Shown here: positions 19,090 to 60,423 of the stretch, piece after piece
Layout of the letters: each line of letters starts with the position of its first letter
How positions within the stretch are numbered: the stretch's first letter is position 1
Assembly: GCA_035626775.1 (NCBI GenBank)
Contig: DASPNA010000078.1
Span: 42,771-106,770, forward strand
Direction: 5' to 3'
Origin: Thermoanaerobaculia bacterium
GTDB taxonomy: Bacteria; Acidobacteriota; Thermoanaerobaculia; Gp7-AA8
Length of the DNA: 64,000 bases
Position numbers and translations under genes: made by a program
The notes under the pieces: generated by a model
Told to the model about the DNA's origin: nothing
What the model saw: only the letters and a program-made list of their open reading frames with translations
Databases searched by the model: none

Positions 19090-20745
19090 GTGCCGGGTCT
19101 CAAGAACCGCGAACACTATCCCGCGCTCGTGATCGGGACCGGCATTGCCGGACTCACGACCGCGTTCGCGCTGGCCAGCGCGGGCATCCGCGTGCTGCTG
19201 GTGACGAAGGCCACCGATCCCGCGGACTGCAACACGTCGTGGGCACAGGGCGGCATCATCTATCAGGGTGAGAACGACACGCCGGCGAAGCTGATCGGCG
19301 ACATCATCCGCGCCGGCGCCGGCATCTCCAACGAAGAAGCGGTGCGCTTCCTCGCCGAAGAAGGTCCGAAGGTCGTCAAGCAACTGCTGCTCGAGGAGAT
19401 CCATGTCCCCTTCTCCACGACCGTCGAAGGCGAGCTCGATCTCACGCAGGAAGGCGCGCATTCGGTGTCGCGCATCATTCACGCCGGCGACGCCACCGGC
19501 CGCGCGATCGAGACCTCTCTACTCAATCGCGTAAAGTCCGAGCCGAACATCACGCTCGCGACTGACGTGACCGCGATCGACCTTTTGTCGACGCACCATC
19601 ATCCGAACGACATCCAGGTGCGTTATCGCCTGACGAACGAATGCGTCGGCGTGTATCTGCTCGACAACAAGACCAACGACGTCTACACGATCTTCGCGGA
19701 CTACACGGTCCTGGCGACAGGCGGCGTGGGCCAGATCTATCTCCACACCACCAACACCAAGAACTCCCTCGGCGACGGCGTGGTGATGGCCAGCCGCGCG
19801 GGCGCGCGCATCATGAATGCCGAGTACGTGCAGTTCCACCCCACCGCGCTCGCCGACAAGAAAGCCAATCACTTCCTGATCTCCGAAGCGCTGCGCGGAG
19901 AAGGCGCGCGCCTGCGCAATCAGCGCGGCGAATACTTCATGGAGCGCTATTCGCCGGAGTTGAAGGACCTCGCGCCTCGCGACGTCGTGGCGCGCGCGAT
20001 CGTCGAGGAGATGACCCACAACAAAGAGGAGTTCATCTACCTCGACCTCGCCAATTTCTACCACGGGCCGCAGCCGATCGCGGAGCGCTTCCCGAACATC
20101 CGCGCGGCATGCGCGGCGATCGGGGTGGACATCGAGCGCGATCCGATTCCGGTCGTTCCCGCCGCGCACTATTTCTGCGGCGGCATCCTCGTCAACCCCC
20201 TCGGCGAAACGACATTGAGCCGGCTCTATGCGATCGGCGAAACATCATGCTCGGGAGTGCATGGTGCCAATCGTCTCGCGTCGACTTCACTGCTCGAAGG
20301 ATTGACGTGGGGCTATTACGCGGCGCAATCGATTCGCGAGAAACTCCATCGGCCGGCTTCGAGCGCATCGGCATCCGCGCTGCGCGCATTCTCATCGCTG
20401 CAACCGGGCAGCGGCGCGTTTCCGGATGCAATCGTGTCGACGATCCCCGACTGGCAGCCGCCCGGAAAGCAGAACCTGGAGGACCCCGCACTGATCCTGC
20501 AGGACTGGACGATCATCCAGCACACGATGTGGAACTACGTCGGCATCGTGCGCACGTACGAGCGCCTCAAGCGCGCCCTCGCCGACATGCAGCACCTCGG
20601 CAACCGCCTGACGAAGTACTACCACGAGTCGACGATCAGCAAGTCGATCGTGGAGCTGTTCCACGGGCAGCAGATGGCGTCGATCGTGGCCACGGCGGCG
20701 ATCCGCAACCCGCGCTCGATCGGGGCGCATTTCCGGAACGGCTAG
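19090..20745 (+). CDS. nadB: L-aspartate oxidase
   Basis: ALVIGTGIAGL FAD-binding motif at the N-terminus. Full-length (551 aa) NadB/fumarate-reductase-flavoprotein architecture. Confidence 0.9.
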   Translation: MPGLKNREHYPALVIGTGIAGLTTAFALASAGIRVLLVTKATDPADCNTSWAQGGIIYQGENDTPAKLIGDIIRAGAGISNEEAVRFLAEEGPKVVKQLLLEEIHVPFSTTVEGELDLTQEGAHSVSRIIHAGDATGRAIETSLLNRVKSEPNITLATDVTAIDLLSTHHHPNDIQVRYRLTNECVGVYLLDNKTNDVYTIFADYTVLATGGVGQIYLHTTNTKNSLGDGVVMASRAGARIMNAEYVQFHPTALADKKANHFLISEALRGEGARLRNQRGEYFMERYSPELKDLAPRDVVARAIVEEMTHNKEEFIYLDLANFYHGPQPIAERFPNIRAACAAIGVDIERDPIPVVPAAHYFCGGILVNPLGETTLSRLYAIGETSCSGVHGANRLASTSLLEGLTWGYYAAQSIREKLHRPASSASASALRAFSSLQPGSGAFPDAIVSTIPDWQPPGKQNLEDPALILQDWTIIQHTMWNYVGIVRTYERLKRALADMQHLGNRLTKYYHESTISKSIVELFHGQQMASIVATAAIRNPRSIGAHFRNG

Positions 20746-20914
20746 TTTCAATAACGTTATGGTATAACGCCATAACGCTCAAAAGCGCCACGCTTTTCTT
20801 CGTGGTGGCCCTGCTGTTCGCTCTTTCCACACACACCTCTTGCTCACGAACAAAAACGACGGGCACGAAACGCCGGTGTGGGGTCTCGAGCCGGTTTGTG
20901 TGGTCAGCGCGTGT

Positions 20915-21103
20915 ATCGATCCACGTTTTCGCAACACGCTCCGTATCTACAGCACGATGCAGATGCGCGTCTCGGTCGCGGTAGGCAACGTCACGATTCT
21001 CGTCGAGCACCTCACGGTCCCGTTGCCGATCCAGACGTGGGCGTTCATTACCGTCGCCAACAACGAAACGCAGGCGATCTCCACGATCACGCCGCAGCCG
21101 TAA
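20915..21103 (+). pseudogene. C-terminal fragment of a third IPT-paralog copy
   Basis: IDPRFRNTLRIYST...WAFITVANNETQAISTITPQP* matches the C-termini of the two downstream paralogs. It is followed by the same GGAGAAGA-ttcgATG junction. Confidence 0.5.
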
Positions 21104-21117
21104 CGGAGAAGAATTCG

Positions 21118-22113
21118 ATGCGATTCACGATCAAGCTCACGCTCCTGACGCTGCTCGCGACGTTGCCGCTCGCGGCGCAAACGAGCTACACCATCACTCC
21201 GGACAACGGTCCCACCTCCGGCGGCACACACGTCACGATCAAGGGCGACTTCGGCCAATGGCCGTATAGCGTGGACTTCGGCGACATCTCTGTGCCCGCG
21301 ACTCGCGTTGATGAGCACACGTTGACGGCGATCACGCCGCCGCACATGCCGGGCCGAGTCGACGTCGTGATCTTCGAGTACGACATCGGCATCACGACCG
21401 ATCTCACGTTCGAGTACATCGGGACCATGCCGGATGACTATGCACGGTTGCTTCTTCCGGTGTTTACGCCGGCCGTGCACGGCGCGTTCGGCTCGATCTT
21501 CGTCAGCGACCTGCGCGTGCTCAATTACGGAGGCATGTCGGCATCGATCCACGGCCTGGTGGCGGATTGTGCGCCGGTGATTTGCATCCCCTCCGAAGGT
21601 CCGTACGACCTCAGCCCGGGATCGGAAACGACGAACTTCGTCCCGAATGGCAATCCCGGCCGATTCGTGTACGTGAAGAAGGACCAGGCCGTGGGGCTGG
21701 CGATGAATCTGCGCGTATACGACACGACACGCGAGGCGCTCAACTTCGGCACCGAGATCCCGATCGTGCGCGAAGACGAGATGCCGCTGAACCGCGTCGT
21801 CTTCACGGGCGTCCCGACCGACCCGCGTTTTCGAAACACTTTGCGCATCTATTCGACGTTCCCATTCACGGCGATCGTCACCGTGGGCAATCGCGCGCCG
21901 GTACGCGTGCGGATGTTGGACACGACCGGGATCTACGATCCGTCTTACGCGATCTTCGGTGACTTTCCGGCGGACGGAAATCCCGTGCGCGTGACGATCG
22001 ATGCGGAGCTCGACTTCCAGACGCTGCTGCCGGTCGACGTACCGATCTGGGCGATGATCACGGTCACGAATAACGAAACGCAGATGATCTCGACGATCAC
22101 TCCGCAACCGTAA
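21118..22113 (+). CDS. Secreted IPT/TIG-domain protein, paralog 1
   Basis: Signal peptide MRFTIKLTLLTLLATLPLAAQ, then ITPDNGPTSGGTHVTIKG (IPT-like). About 90% identical to the next gene. Confidence 0.8.
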   Translation: MRFTIKLTLLTLLATLPLAAQTSYTITPDNGPTSGGTHVTIKGDFGQWPYSVDFGDISVPATRVDEHTLTAITPPHMPGRVDVVIFEYDIGITTDLTFEYIGTMPDDYARLLLPVFTPAVHGAFGSIFVSDLRVLNYGGMSASIHGLVADCAPVICIPSEGPYDLSPGSETTNFVPNGNPGRFVYVKKDQAVGLAMNLRVYDTTREALNFGTEIPIVREDEMPLNRVVFTGVPTDPRFRNTLRIYSTFPFTAIVTVGNRAPVRVRMLDTTGIYDPSYAIFGDFPADGNPVRVTIDAELDFQTLLPVDVPIWAMITVTNNETQMISTITPQP

Positions 22114-22127
22114 TGGAGAAGATTTCG

Positions 22128-23123
22128 ATGCGACTTACGCTCAAGCTCACGTTCCTGGTGCTGCTCGCGACATCGCCACTCGCGGCGCAAACGAACTACA
22201 CGATCACTCCGGACAACGGTCCCACCTCAGGCGGCACACACGTCACCATCAAGGGCGACTTCGGCCAATGGCCGTATGGCGTGATCTTCGGCGGCGTCTC
22301 TGTGCCCGCGACGCGCGTCGATGAGCACACGTTGACCGCAGTCACGCCGCCGCACATGCCCGGCAAGGTGGAGGTCGTCATCTTCGAGTTCGACATCGGC
22401 ATCAACACCGATCTCACGTTCGACTACATCGGGCCGGTCCCGGATGACTACGCACGGTTGCTCCTGCCGGTATTCACGCCGCCGGTGCACGGCGCGTTCG
22501 GCTCGCTGTTCTTCAGCAATCTGCGCGTACTGAACTACGGAGGCGCGACAGCATCGATCTACGGGCTCGAAATGGTCTGCGCGCCGATCCTCTGCATCCC
22601 GTTCGAAGGTCCGTTCGACCTCGGCCCCGGCTCAGAATCGACGGACTTCGTCCCGAACGGCAATCCCGGCCGCTTCGTGTACGTGAAGAAGGATCAGGCC
22701 GTGGGGCTGGCGATGAATTTACGCGTGTACGACACGACGCGCGAAGCGCTCAACTTCGGCACCGAGATCCCGATCGTGCGCGAGGAGGAGATGCCGCTGA
22801 ACCGCGTCGTCTTCACGGGCGTCCCGACCGATCCGCGTTTTCGCAACACGCTGCGCATCTATTCGACGTTCCCATTCACGGCGATCGTGACGATCGGAAA
22901 TCGACCGCCGGTGCGCGTGCGGATGTCGGACACCAACGGCATTCACGATCCGTCGTACGCCCAGTTCGGCGACTTTCCGACCGACGGCAATCCAGTACGC
23001 GTGACGATCGACGCGGAGCTCGACTTCCAGACGCTGCTGCCGGTCGACGTACCGATCTGGGCGATGATCACGGTCACGAACAACGAAACGCAGATGATCT
23101 CGACGATCACGCCGCAACCGTGA
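22128..23123 (+). CDS. Secreted IPT/TIG-domain protein, paralog 2
   Basis: MRLTLKLTFLVLLATSPLAAQ...; tandem duplicate of 21118..22113. An alternative ATG at 22113 would overlap as TAATG. Confidence 0.8.
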   Translation: MRLTLKLTFLVLLATSPLAAQTNYTITPDNGPTSGGTHVTIKGDFGQWPYGVIFGGVSVPATRVDEHTLTAVTPPHMPGKVEVVIFEFDIGINTDLTFDYIGPVPDDYARLLLPVFTPPVHGAFGSLFFSNLRVLNYGGATASIYGLEMVCAPILCIPFEGPFDLGPGSESTDFVPNGNPGRFVYVKKDQAVGLAMNLRVYDTTREALNFGTEIPIVREEEMPLNRVVFTGVPTDPRFRNTLRIYSTFPFTAIVTIGNRPPVRVRMSDTNGIHDPSYAQFGDFPTDGNPVRVTIDAELDFQTLLPVDVPIWAMITVTNNETQMISTITPQP

Positions 23124-23220
23124 CGAGGGGTCCCTCGGGTTCCTCGGTTCCTCGGGTTCCTCGGTGGGATAGGTTGCCCAATCGCCCACCCCGAGGAACC
23201 CGAGGAACCCCGAGGAACCG
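23124..23220. repeat. Palindromic element family 1
   Basis: gaggggtccctcgggttcctcggttcctcgggttcctcgg ... ccgaggaacccgaggaaccccgaggaaccg, between convergent genes. Confidence 0.75.
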
Positions 23221-23224
23221 TTTT

Positions 23225-24523
23225 TCAGTCGCAAGGCCGGTCCGGCGTACACAGGACCGCCGGTGCGAGTGCGAGACCGGCGAATGGATTGATGGGGCGC
23301 GCGTGGCCGGCGCAGAGTCTGTCCTCTGACGGCACAGGAACCCAGATCCACCACTTTTCCGGCGTGCCGGAGAGTGAGCCGTACCAGACGCCGGACGCGG
23401 GGCCACTCGTCGACGATGGATGCAGTTCGCGAACGCGCGACACGTCGACGAGCTCCGGCTCCGACCATGTCGCCACCGTCGGATCGAGCGATGTCGCGGT
23501 CTGCGCGTGCATCACATCTGCGAACACATACGCGTGCAGCCAGCGGCCGTTGCCGAATTTCACGTCGCCCGCGCCGAAGCGGAAGCCGGCTTCCTGCACG
23601 CCGTTGTAGAGCTCGAGCACCGCGTTGCCTTCGTCAGGCGGCAACTGTGCGCCGGTCGGATCATCGTCGTACGCCCACACCAGTCTGCCGGAATGCGGCT
23701 GCCAGCGGCCTTCGAGAAAGATCTCGCGCACGCTGCCACCGAATCCAAACGGATGATCGGCGTTGTAATCGAAGCGATAGAGCACCGACGACAACGCGCG
23801 GTCGTAAGTCGGATTGGAACTGCGCGGATGGTAGTACTGGAAAAACACGTAGAAAAGACCGTTCTCGAATGCGACCTGCACCTGTCCGATGCCCGACGGC
23901 GATGTACACGCCGGCGCGCTGAACGGCGCATTCTCGGATTGCGTGTACTTCGCGTAGATCACCGGTCCCCAGTTTTCGGTTTCGGCAACGAGGCCGCGCG
24001 CATAGACCTCCCACACCTCACCGTCATTCGAAACCGCCCAATAGATCTTGCCGTGGATGAAATCGGCGTTGCCGCCGACGAAGGCCATGTAGTAACGGAC
24101 GCCGGTCGGGCTGTTTTCATTCGGCAGCCGGACGACCGACGGACTGGCAAGCGGCCCGGAGTGGAACCATGATTCGAATCCGCAGCGCCTGTACTGTCCG
24201 GTGATCGCGGGACAGACATTCGCGTAAGAGTCGACGTTCGCAGGCAACGTCCACGCGCCATCGAGGCCGTTGCGCGCGCCGCGGAAAAGCGTATCGAGCG
24301 CGACGTCGGTGCAGTAGTTCGGCGCCGCGGCCTGCGCCATGACTCCGAGATCGATCCCGTTCGGCAGGAGATGAATGTCGGGGTCGTACCAGGTGCGGCT
24401 GCACGTATTCGTGCCCGCTGGTGTGGCGATCGGGAGCGAGCGATAGATCGTGCCGATGGAGTACTGGGCGATTGCCTTCGATGAAAGCAGCAGCGCGATG
24501 CCGGCAATGACAACGCGGGACAT
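23225..24523 (-). CDS. Secreted hypothetical protein
   Basis: Signal peptide MSRVVIAGIALLLSSKAIAQ. 432-aa open frame, Trp/Tyr/Gly-rich. Confidence 0.6.
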   Translation of the reverse strand: MSRVVIAGIALLLSSKAIAQYSIGTIYRSLPIATPAGTNTCSRTWYDPDIHLLPNGIDLGVMAQAAAPNYCTDVALDTLFRGARNGLDGAWTLPANVDSYANVCPAITGQYRRCGFESWFHSGPLASPSVVRLPNENSPTGVRYYMAFVGGNADFIHGKIYWAVSNDGEVWEVYARGLVAETENWGPVIYAKYTQSENAPFSAPACTSPSGIGQVQVAFENGLFYVFFQYYHPRSSNPTYDRALSSVLYRFDYNADHPFGFGGSVREIFLEGRWQPHSGRLVWAYDDDPTGAQLPPDEGNAVLELYNGVQEAGFRFGAGDVKFGNGRWLHAYVFADVMHAQTATSLDPTVATWSEPELVDVSRVRELHPSSTSGPASGVWYGSLSGTPEKWWIWVPVPSEDRLCAGHARPINPFAGLALAPAVLCTPDRPCD

Positions 24524-24527
24524 GACT

Positions 24528-25553
24528 TTAGAAGAGTTTGCCTTCGTGCGCGCCGCCGAGCGGGTAGCCGAGATGCGCGTAGGCAGTACGGCTGGCGACG
24601 CGGCCGCGCGGCGTGCGTTGCAGGAAGCCGATCTGGATGAGGTAGGGCTCGTAGAGATCTTCGATCGTGCCGCGATCTTCGCCGATCGACGATGAGAGAG
24701 CGTTCACACCGACCGGGCCGCCGCGGAACCGCTCGATGATCGTCGTGAGCAGCTTGCGATCGATCTCGTCTAGGCCGTACTCATCGACCTCGAGCATGCT
24801 CAGCGCGCCGCGCGCAATCGCCACATCCACTCTCCCCTCATGCCGCACCTCGGCGAAATCACGAACGCGGCGCAGCAGACGATTGGCGATGCGAGGTGTC
24901 CCGCGGGAACGGCGTGCGATCTCCACGGCCGCTTCCGGAGCAACTGCGATGCCGAGGATGTCGGCGGAGCGGCTGACGATGACGGTGAGCGATTCGACGT
25001 CGTAGAAATCGAGGCGATGCACGATGCCGAATCGCGCGCGCAACGGCGCCGTCAATAGTCCCGCTCGCGTCGTTGCGCCAACCAGGGTGAAGCGCGGCAG
25101 CTCGACCTTGAGCGTGCGTGCGGCCGGACCCTGGCCGATGACGACGTCGACGTGAAAGTCTTCCATCGCGGAGTACAGCACTTCTTCGACGATGGGAGGC
25201 AGACGATGGATCTCGTCGATGAACAGCACGTCGCCTGCTTCGAGGTTCGTTACGATCGCGACGAGGTCGCCGGGCTTCTCCAGCGCCGGACCGGAGGTAG
25301 AGCGCATGCTCGCGTTCATCTCGTTCGCGATGATGTTCGCGAGCGTGGTCTTGCCGAGGCCGGGCGGGCCGAAGAGAAGTACGTGATCGAGCGATTCGCT
25401 GCGCTTGCGCGCGGCGCTCAATGAGATCTCGAGGTTCGCTTTGACCTTGTGCTGGCCGATGTACTCGCGCAGAAGGCGCGGCCGCAGCGAGAGCTCGGTC
25501 TGAAGATCTTCCTGGTCTGGTGTCGGAGCGAGGATGCGGTCGTCCGTGGTCAC
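24528..25553 (-). CDS. ruvB: Holliday junction branch-migration helicase
   Basis: [14 protein letters not shown] (Walker A) and DEIHRL, full RuvB length. Confidence 0.95.
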
Positions 25554-27232
25554 TGCGCCGTAGTGTAGCCGAGCGTCGATGATGCGGCCGCGGACGCAAC
25601 GCGCGTGGGCAGCGATACCGTGATCGAGCTGCCCGCGCCTTCGCTCGACGTCACGTCGATCTTCCCTCCATGCTCCTGCACGATGCGATACGAGATGGCC
25701 ATGCCCAGGCCGGTGCCGGTGGGAAAGTTCGTGCGGAAGGGCTGGAAGAGGCGGCGCAGATCGGCTTGCGACATGCCGCGGCCGTTGTCGGAGAACGTGA
25801 TGCGATACGAGCCGTCGACGACAGTCGTGCGGACGGTGAGCACACCACCTTGCGGCATGGCCTGCACCGCGTTGCGCGCCAGGTTCCAGAACACCTGGCG
25901 GATCTGGTCGGCATCGCCGACGAGATGGAACGACGGCGGATCGATGTCGCGGCGGATCTCATGATTGCGATGGAGCTCGGGCGAGTTCTGCAAAAGATCG
26001 AGCGTTTCGGAAAGGTTGGCTGCGACGTCGTACTCCAGCGCGCGTTTTTCCTGCGGACGGACGAAGCGGAGAAAGTCGGAGATCGATTTATTCAACCGCT
26101 CCGATTCTTTCAGCACGATCGACATGAGGCGCTGTTCCTGCGCGGTCAGTGACGTCGATCCTTTGAGCACTTGCACCGATCCTGCGATGGCGGCGAGCGG
26201 ATTTCGGATCTCGTGCGCGATGCCGGCGGACAGCTCGCCCACCGCGGCCATCCTGTCCTTGAGGCGAAGCTCGGCCTCGAGCTTCTTCATCTCGGTGAGG
26301 TCCTGAAAGATGAGCGTGTAGCCCGCGGCAGCACCTTCCAGCGTGCTGAGTGGACTGACCGCGAAGCCGATGTTTCGCGCCGCGCCGGCCACGGTCACGT
26401 CGTCGATCTCCTTGCGCACGACGACACCCGCCGCGAGCTCTTCCCGTGCCTCGTTCCAGTGGTCCATGTCCAGAAAACCGAGCTCCGTCACGTGCCGGCC
26501 GAGAATCGCTTGCGGTTCCATCTGCAGGATCTGCGAGCCGGCGGGATTCACGAACGATGCGGTGCCGAACGACGAGAGCGTGATGAGGCCGGACGGGATC
26601 GATTCGACGACGTTCTGATTGAGCGCGCGGAGCTCGGCGAGGTTCTGGCGATTCGCATCGAGCTCGCGCGCGGTGCGCTGCAATTGTTCGGAGAGATACG
26701 ACGTGAGCAGCGCGGTCGCGTAGAAGCCGAGGAAGTTCGCGGCCATGTTGAAGTAGAGGCGCGAGGCGGACCAGTCGATCTCCAGCGACTGCGACTGCGC
26801 GGGCATCGGCAGCACGCGGTAGTAGAGAAGGTCGACCAGAACGCCGTAAAGGATCACCGCGCCCGATGCGGCGAGCAAACCGCCGCGCCGATAGAGCAGC
26901 ATCGACGCGGTGATGATCGAGACGAGATAGAGAAACGAGAACGGGGAATCGAGTCCGCCGGTAAAGTAGACCAGTAGTGTCTCGACGAGCAGATCGCCGG
27001 CGATCTGGATCATCACGTTCACGGCGCGCGACGGGACCGTAAAAGCGAGCCCGATGTAGAGGAGCGTGAGCGCGTACGTCACGCCGGCGGCGATGTAGAG
27101 GTAGTCGATGGGCAGGACTTCGCCGACCGTGTATTGAATGATGAGCGCGGCCAGCAGCAGCGTGGTGACGACGACCACGCGGACCGCGATGAGCATGCGG
27201 GTGTCGCTGGACATGGTCGGCACGCGACTCAT
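25550..27232 (-). CDS. Sensor histidine kinase (N-terminal TM region, PAS, HisKA, HATPase)
   Basis: [11 protein letters not shown]-box plus a G-x-G-L-G ATPase block. ATG at 27232. 4-nt overlap with ruvB. The extension to 27310 in the ORF track is repeat-derived. Confidence 0.85.
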
Positions 27233-27236
27233 GGTA

Positions 27237-27342
27237 ACCCTCGCCCCGCTTGCGGGGAGAGGGTGGCGCGCAGCGCCGGGTGAGGGGGACCCCTCATCCG
27301 CCTGCGGCACCTTCTCCCCTCGCGGAGGGGAGAAGGCTACCT
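27237..27342. repeat. Palindromic element family 4, permuted or tandem-partial arrangement
   Basis: ccctcgccccgcttgcggggagagggtggc...ccgggtgaggggg acccctcatccgcctgcggcaccttctcccctcgcggaggggagaaggctac. Confidence 0.7.
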
Positions 27343-60325: not shown

Positions 60326-60423
60326 GAGTTCCTCGGGTTCCTCGGTTCCTCGGAGGGGAACGCGATGTGATGCTCCTCCCCTCCGAGGGACCCGAGGTAC
60401 TCCGAGGAACCCGAGGAACTCAC
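60326..60423. repeat. Palindromic element family 1
   Basis: gagttcctcgggttcctcggttcctcggaggggaa ... ccctccgagggacccgaggtactccgaggaacccgaggaactc. Confidence 0.75.

Follow-up and report, generated by a model that had tools for sequence, protein, structure and literature searches.

How does a bacterial genome come to carry two nearly identical genes for secreted proteins, one directly behind the other, with the end of a third gene in front of them? The array that raises this question lies in a 64,000-nt window (the whole stretch of DNA that was analyzed, and to which all unprefixed coordinates refer) of contig DASPNA010000078.1 from a Thermoanaerobaculia bacterium. A sequence-only reading had described two adjacent secreted IPT/TIG proteins of about 330 residues and had proposed duplication, decay or gene conversion, possibly accompanied by diversifying selection. 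We find that the two genes, copies A and B, arose recently, when a 1010-bp unit that consists of the gene and a 14-nt ribosome-binding junction was duplicated in tandem. The parts of the array are as follows.

About 20846..21103, + strand: remnant (pseudogene) of a third family member, delimited by tblastn, a hidden Markov model (HMM) and alignment with protein P0122 and the upstream gene of contig L009
21104..21117, + strand: junction 1, a 14-nt spacer with the Shine-Dalgarno sequence GGAG at 21105-21108, 9 nt 5′ of the copy A ATG
21118..22113, + strand: copy A (protein P0002), 996 nt, 331 codons, 331 aa, annotated as "IPT/TIG domain-containing protein"; putative signal peptide at residues 1-21, IPT/TIG domain at residues 24-100, beta-sandwich C-terminal domain (C-domain) at residues 103-331 (21424-22110)
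22114..22127, + strand: junction 2, the duplicate of junction 1 within the 1010-bp unit, with GGAG at 22115-22118
22128..23123, + strand: copy B (protein P0001), 996 nt, 331 codons, 331 aa, with the architecture of copy A; TIG domain at 22197-22427, C-domain at 22434-23120

Recent duplication of a 1010-bp unit

The two paralogs are in tandem on the + strand, as had been described, and encode 331 residues each. Their proteins align without indels and are identical at 288 of 331 positions (87.0%); the near-identity claimed earlier thus stands, and the accompanying figure of about 90% was slightly high. At the DNA level, 873 of 996 bases are identical (87.7%), with 123 differences and no indel. 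BLASTN aligned the repeat over 1074 nt without a gap at 87.3% identity, and a repeat finder gave a period of exactly 1010 bp. Before both copies, a stop codon is followed by GGAG, 9 nt and the ATG, and this conserved stop-to-ATG junction was found just as described, in the sequences TAAcGGAGAAGAattcgATG (21101-21120) and TAAtGGAGAAGAtttcgATG (22111-22130).

If A and B derive from a single gene, what did the locus look like before? In a neighbor-joining tree, A and B are mutually nearest (89% identity in the C-domain), followed by P0003 of contig L009 (80-83%). Over almost the entire gene, A and B differ from each other at 123 of 996 positions (12.3%) and from P0003 at 206 and 217 positions (20.7-21.8%). 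Along contig L009 come the 3′ end of a family gene that lies upstream (with WAFITVTNNETQAISTITPQP before its stop codon), then the junction CCGTAACGGAGGAACTTCAATG, P0003, a C-domain-only paralog and a 421-aa gene on the opposite strand. It therefore has a single TIG copy, flanked by the upstream paralog and by the C-domain-only paralog, and the latter (252 aa, 49% identical) occupies the position of copy B. The window thus has a head-to-tail repeat that includes the junction, and its copies have diverged less from each other than either has from the nearest ortholog, as in a recent tandem duplication. In addition, three 68-nt 3′ ends that are 81-84% identical lie exactly 1010 bp apart. The unit was duplicated in a Thermoanaerobaculia genome, in the conserved slot that nadB and ruvB bound, and the A-to-B junction is the copy created in that event. 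We infer that the conserved 3′ ends of adjacent paralogs may have served as the substrate for unequal recombination.

Repeats of this kind can also be made by an assembler, and an expanded or collapsed repeat was the condition under which the earlier reading was to be abandoned. The 2,495-nt array is, however, 100% identical in three other metagenome assemblies (L001, L002 and L003; two from ENA and one from JGI). Since two of the three depart from the window at other positions (4 of 13,001 and 1 of 7,861 bases), they are independent reconstructions of near-identical strains. Moreover, the 123 differences between A and B are too many for an assembler to confuse the copies, and homologous arrays are present in dozens of other genomes. 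An assembly artefact is therefore excluded for all practical purposes.

Given that the 14-nt spacers carry GGAG and that A and B are not separated by a terminator, the two copies are probably co-transcribed. A scan of the array for sigma-70-like promoters and simple terminators returned nothing above shuffled expectation. The transcript could start at or before nadB and would be ended at a large hairpin after B.

The upstream remnant and the turnover of arrayed copies

What, then, is the fragment in front of copy A? That a decayed family member leads the array was confirmed both by tblastn and by the C-domain profile. The remnant sits in one frame within a mechanically called open reading frame (ORF) at 20840..21103 (TTG start, 87 aa; a hypothetical protein in GenBank) and resembles A and B from residue 209 to residue 331 (~37% identity, tblastn E 1e-11). 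It matches the C-domain profile solely at positions 137-160 and 194-233, comprises the C-terminal ~40% of the C-domain alone, retains IDPRFRNTLRIYST and terminates in NNETQAISTITPQP / WAFITVANNETQAISTITPQP before the stop codon. Local alignment carries it to about 20846, where NKNDGHETPV pairs with NLNFGTEIPL, and shows that about 5 and about 33 residues have been lost from it in two in-frame deletions. Of the earlier description, a remnant of 63 codons with the same junction, the remnant and its junction are thus real and the length is too short. The remnant lacks a signal peptide, a TIG domain, an ATG and a Shine-Dalgarno sequence.

The remnant is not a decayed copy of the A/B unit itself, since it is only ~37% identical to A and B and sits where L009 has a separate upstream paralog. 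Because of the L009 gene order, the remnant-to-A junction is orthologous to the L009 junction between the upstream and middle genes, and the remnant can be assigned as the positional counterpart of the divergent L009 upstream paralog. It would then be the wreck of an older, more divergent paralog that survives upstream in this nearest relative. The remnant, the L009 upstream gene and P0122 have an AIS variant and WAFITV in common, a short and weak signal. A database search with the 87-aa remnant returned itself and one partial 134-aa protein, P0122; since these are its only matches, the architecture of the full-length ancestor is not directly readable.

The array belongs to a gene order that is strongly conserved among Thermoanaerobaculia: UbiA, NYN, an FMO-like gene, nadB, one to three family genes and then, on the - strand, ruvB, pilS (for a PilS-like kinase), pilC, pilT and pilB. 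This order spans ~17592-27310 in the window and recurs in L001-L008 and L012-L014, with a small membrane protein between the FMO-like gene and nadB; within it, only the family slot varies, both in content and in position (before or after nadB). The nadB/ruvB slot holds one copy in L012 and L008 and two in L014. L006 has a C-domain-only gene and two TIG genes, and L004 has two TIG genes 5′ of nadB and a C-domain-only gene 3′ of nadB. A second slot adjoins guaB (IMP dehydrogenase) and a PBP4-like D-Ala-D-Ala carboxypeptidase and contains as many as six consecutive copies or fragments. Loci of this second type include L050 (5001-11048) and L071 (4937-11811), as well as L063, L068, L077, L078, L082, L085 and L087; copies in the guaB slot are mutually far more divergent, at 28-51% identity.

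As the earlier reading had suggested checking, copy number does vary among relatives. Full-length C-domains were counted within +/-6 kb at 76 distinct loci from GTDB genomes, with the following result.

0 full-length copies: 5 loci
1 full-length copy: 42 loci
2 full-length copies: 22 loci
3 full-length copies: 5 loci
4 full-length copies: 1 locus
5 full-length copies: 1 locus

Two to five full-length copies are thus present at 29 of the 76 loci (about 38%), and partial copies are frequent.

Could the duplication instead be old, with A and B held similar by recurrent gene conversion? Concerted evolution of this kind would fit the observation that tandem TIG copies are mutually closest in the window (89%), L040 (88%), L014 (77%), L006 (75%) and L004 (67%), and the 5′ end and the final ~45 codons show slightly reduced synonymous divergence between A and B. 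However, statistical tests reveal no conversion tract: at most 20 consecutive codons are identical (permutation p = 0.45), a comparison of the last 45 codons with the rest for synonymous differences gives no signal of conversion in the 3′ tail (Fisher p = 0.40), and the A/B site patterns relative to the outgroup are evenly interspersed, with no mosaic signal. The 12% divergence is likewise spread evenly, and L009 has a different, C-domain-only gene at B's place. Other arrays retain positional orthology, as in L023 and L028, where identity is 86% and 89% between genomes and 66% within the array; the nearest relative lies in the same array for just 18 of 80 arrayed copies. Gene conversion, as proposed in the sequence-only reading, thus finds no support in these tests, and we regard concerted evolution as an improbable explanation of the A/B pair.

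The family evolves by birth and death with occasional young duplicates, among which the pair in the window is one of the youngest, and not by pervasive concerted evolution. Another very young tandem pair, with C-domains that are 88% identical, is at L040 6007-7917 in an unrelated Acidobacteriota metagenome-assembled genome (MAG), so recent duplication recurs independently. Active duplication and decay, as first proposed, can therefore be demonstrated in the family. New copies arise by tandem duplication at a handful of conserved slots flanked by housekeeping genes; they then diverge while purifying selection acts on them, and occasionally one is truncated. As in other birth-and-death families of tandem paralogs, there are 0-5 full copies per locus, old, young and truncated copies occur together, and the intact ones are under purifying selection; the evolutionary mode is ordinary, and its sole peculiarity is the use of conserved slots among housekeeping genes (nadB/ruvB and guaB). 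Taken as a whole, we consider this evolutionary account likely.

If birth and death produce the copies, how does selection act on them afterward? A and B are under purifying selection. Over the whole gene, the Nei-Gojobori method (NG86) gave a nonsynonymous divergence (dN) of 0.073, a synonymous divergence (dS) of 0.352 and dN/dS of 0.21, and maximum likelihood gave a dN of 0.063, a dS of 0.576 and dN/dS of 0.11. The ratio is 0.83 in the signal peptide, 0.31 in the TIG domain and 0.16 in the C-domain; in 30-codon windows it is never above 1 and is at most 0.35 in the mature protein, although pairwise dN/dS is blind to site-specific selection. It was also proposed that diversifying selection on a surface-exposed protein drives the A/B differences. 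The family is indeed expanded and secreted, and the 43 amino acid differences cluster at residues 121-173 and 256-285 (dN 0.15-0.21 there), which are the most variable, probably loop, regions of the family. However, the differences fall at family-variable columns (mean conservation 0.36, compared with 0.61 for unchanged columns; Mann-Whitney p = 7e-9), which is exactly what relaxed constraint predicts, and dN/dS is below 1 in every window and domain. Diversifying selection is thus an unlikely source of these differences.

The C-domain and a possible binding role

The architecture of A and B was borne out as a signal peptide, an IPT domain and a C-terminal domain that matches no Pfam or NCBIfam model. 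The sole Pfam match is IPT/TIG (PF01833) at residues 24-100 (E 1.7e-11 and 4.2e-10), with scores of 44.4 and 39.9 bits that exceed the Pfam gathering cut-off of 20.9, and this region has the Ig-like E-set beta-sandwich fold. The N terminus, MRLTLKLTFLVLLATSPLAAQ followed by TNY (boundary SPLAAQ/TNY), reads as a Sec/signal-peptidase I signal peptide, and residues 2-19 form a helix in the AlphaFold model. There is no lipobox Cys, as the first Cys does not occur before residue 151. NCBIfam returned no match for either protein, nor is there a C-terminal sorting signal of the PEP-CTERM, LPXTG or type IX secretion system C-terminal domain (T9SS CTD) type, as judged by the lack of a hydrophobic tail and of an NCBIfam match; the protein end, ETQMISTITPQP, falls inside a beta-strand of the fold.

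What defines the family is the ~230-aa all-beta C-domain. A word-indexed search found 729 homologs, nearly all of about 335 aa with TIG and C-domain, and where a name is given, the source is a Thermoanaerobaculia or Acidobacteriota MAG. A search with a profile built from just the C-domain found 2,513 representatives at 50% identity, 551 of them at E <= 1e-30. In a set with a single genome for each GTDB species, every one of the 113 confirmed relatives came from an Acidobacteriota or Thermoanaerobaculia MAG, and the family appears specific to these groups; several GTDB genomes have three or four separate family loci. Three architectures recur: a signal peptide and C-domain (246-270 aa), a signal peptide, TIG and C-domain (about 335 aa), and a signal peptide, two TIG domains and C-domain (about 431 aa). 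In longer relatives, the N-terminal partners are only Ig-like modules (TIG, DUF11 and CARDB) or repeated C-domains. Four polypeptides, P0189 (780 aa), P0193 (460 aa), P0201 (682 aa) and P0246 (769 aa), have two or three C-domains each; these possibly represent fused neighboring array members or gene-calling read-through. A and B thus differ from the broad class of IPT/TIG cell-surface and secreted proteins in that TIG is just a quarter of the protein, and the family-defining part is a C-domain that is also found without TIG or with two.

AlphaFold2 modeled copy B with a predicted local distance difference test score (pLDDT) of 92.7 for the full protein. The C-domain alone (residues 103-331, 229 aa) was modeled as all-beta with a pLDDT of 94.4 and a predicted template modeling score (pTM) of 0.90. 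Its motifs are LLPxFxxPVxGAFGSxF, NLRVxDxxR...NFGTEIPxV and GVPxDPRFRNTLRIY, with WAFITVTNNETQxITTITPQ as the most C-terminal, and at least 90% of members share the pair C49/C54 (C-domain numbering), in keeping with an extracytoplasmic location. Searches of Pfam at E <= 10 with 20 family C-domain sequences gave nothing beyond chance, a PDB sequence-profile search returned TIG chains only and none for the C-domain, and Foldseek against the PDB with the C-domain found nothing at E <= 1e-3.

To which known folds is the C-domain closest? The best match is to the ASRT/TM1070 "ASRAH" beta-sandwich superfamily (Pfam DUF1362; de Souza, Iyer & Aravind 2009, PMC2739507), a sub-domain resemblance that comes along with similarity to carbohydrate-binding modules (CBMs). 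Diagnostic of that superfamily, whose beta-sandwich has eight strands, are a Trp where strand 1 starts and an Asn where strand 2 ends (PMC2739507). TM1070/ASRT is 12% identical, covers ~40% of the 229-aa domain and was not recovered by Foldseek, and a sequence-profile relationship is absent, with no Pfam match even at E <= 10. The resemblance in the model is thus at the level of the fold and partial, a lead rather than membership. For the ASRT superfamily, which includes secreted versions, a role in the binding of small molecules, probably sugars, has been argued on contextual and structural grounds (PMC2739507). CBM35, CBM6, CBM77, CBM36 and the Pleurotus ostreatus lectin, which are beta-sandwich or jelly-roll proteins, score against the C-domain at the level of generic beta-sandwiches. 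No Pfam CBM model matched, which gives no sign by sequence of membership in a CAZy CBM family, and A and B differ from CBMs in having no sequence similarity to them, no attached enzyme domain and no nearby polysaccharide-utilization genes. They also differ from the SusE/F-like surface glycan-binding proteins (SGBP-B) of Bacteroidota, such as BACOVA_02650, in that they have no lipoprotein signal peptide and are not beside SusC/SusD; their neighbors are nadB, a 432-aa secreted protein, ruvB and pilS, and the same is true in 10 related loci.

If A and B act outside the cytoplasm, what might they do? The mature proteins would be exported by Sec and cleaved by signal peptidase I, and could then serve as non-enzymatic binding proteins in which the TIG domain is a spacer and the C-terminal beta-sandwich a lectin- or CBM-like module, with a glycan as the most likely ligand. 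A and B would then differ mainly in family-variable loops at residues 136-173 and 256-285. This suggestion derives from the all-beta model of the C-domain, the argument for sugar binding by ASRT, the Cys pair and the restriction of N-terminal partners to Ig-like modules. As it depends on architecture and weak fold similarity, we put forward a binding function only tentatively. It is possible, with the same reserve, that the C-domain is a previously undescribed extracytoplasmic ligand-binding domain, very abundant, seemingly not found outside Thermoanaerobaculia and other Acidobacteriota and with a fold that is only a distant relative of ASRT/TM1070, and that the arrays provide a fast-turnover repertoire of soil-glycan or surface-adhesion specificities that differs between strains.

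A different role would be as structural parts of an envelope or of a secretion or pilus machine, as for the IPT/TIG belt protein DR_1364 around the Deinococcus secretin. The similarity to that structure (8co1) is, however, merely that of a generic TIG fold. In addition, ruvB intervenes between the array and the pil genes, which are on the opposite strand, family members are also found at unrelated loci (L010 and the guaB slot), and a copy number of 1 to 6 would be unusual for a stoichiometric component. We consider a machine part very unlikely. A link to the nearby type IV pilus genes was considered and rejected given the position of ruvB, the strand and the family members elsewhere. No conserved functional partner emerged from all-against-all ORF clustering of 80+ loci, which recovered housekeeping neighbors only (UbiA, NYN, FMO, nadB, ruvB, guaB and PBP4) and was noisy due to long spurious ORFs in GC-rich DNA.

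We consider the combination of recent duplication, birth and death and a secreted binding role to be, on balance, the best explanation of the locus as a whole. Several points weigh against it. The ancestral gene order comes from one close relative, since L009, the outgroup contig, is only 3.2 kb long. No sequence match to any characterized family was found with Pfam, NCBIfam or PDB profiles. The many invariant polar residues of the C-domain (among them D202, R205, R239, Y245, W311, N319 and Q322) suggest a single conserved site and not diversified specificities. Export is read off the signal-peptide sequence alone, co-transcription is deduced from spacing with no sigma-70-like promoter found, and the neighbors are housekeeping genes that give no functional clue.

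The evolutionary event is itself routine, a young tandem duplicate under purifying selection with an older paralog dead beside it. Its modest value is that it points to a family of about 2,500 clusters at 50% identity, without a Pfam or NCBIfam model, in uncultured soil Thermoanaerobaculia, whose C-domain is confidently modeled with a fold that has no close solved relative and whose slots change copy number between species. If the C-domain does bind a glycan or surface, it would be a lineage-specific piece of how abundant uncultured soil bacteria meet their surroundings, and a new domain entry would be justified.

The hairpin after copy B and neighboring genes

The large hairpin after copy B was outside the stem and loop limits of the terminator scanner and was found by folding.

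23129..23226, no strand assigned: long hairpin whose perfect stem consists of GGTTCCTCGG units (inverted repeats I1, I2 and I4), with GTTTTTC after it

It follows the copy B stop codon, sits where the stops of copy B and of the gene for the 432-aa protein converge, and folds as RNA at -77.5 kcal/mol (z = -5.5). It is probably a bidirectional terminator. The palindromic GGTTCCTCGG element is also present at 11861-11943 and 60327-60420, with 8 arm matches in the window compared with 0.03 expected, and looks like a dispersed repeat family of this genome that is of the terminator type and resembles repetitive extragenic palindromic (REP) elements.

The 432-aa protein is encoded at 23225-24523 on the - strand, convergent to the array; it has a signal-like N terminus and no Pfam or NCBIfam match. 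At the counterpart position, L008 and L009 have same-strand proteins of 420-421 aa, a comparison made by size and strand. Between the FMO-like gene and nadB, at 18701-19069 on the - strand, is a hydrophobic 122-aa ORF with no Pfam hit. This ORF is called as a gene in L001-L003, and ORFs of similar size are found at that position in L008 and L012.

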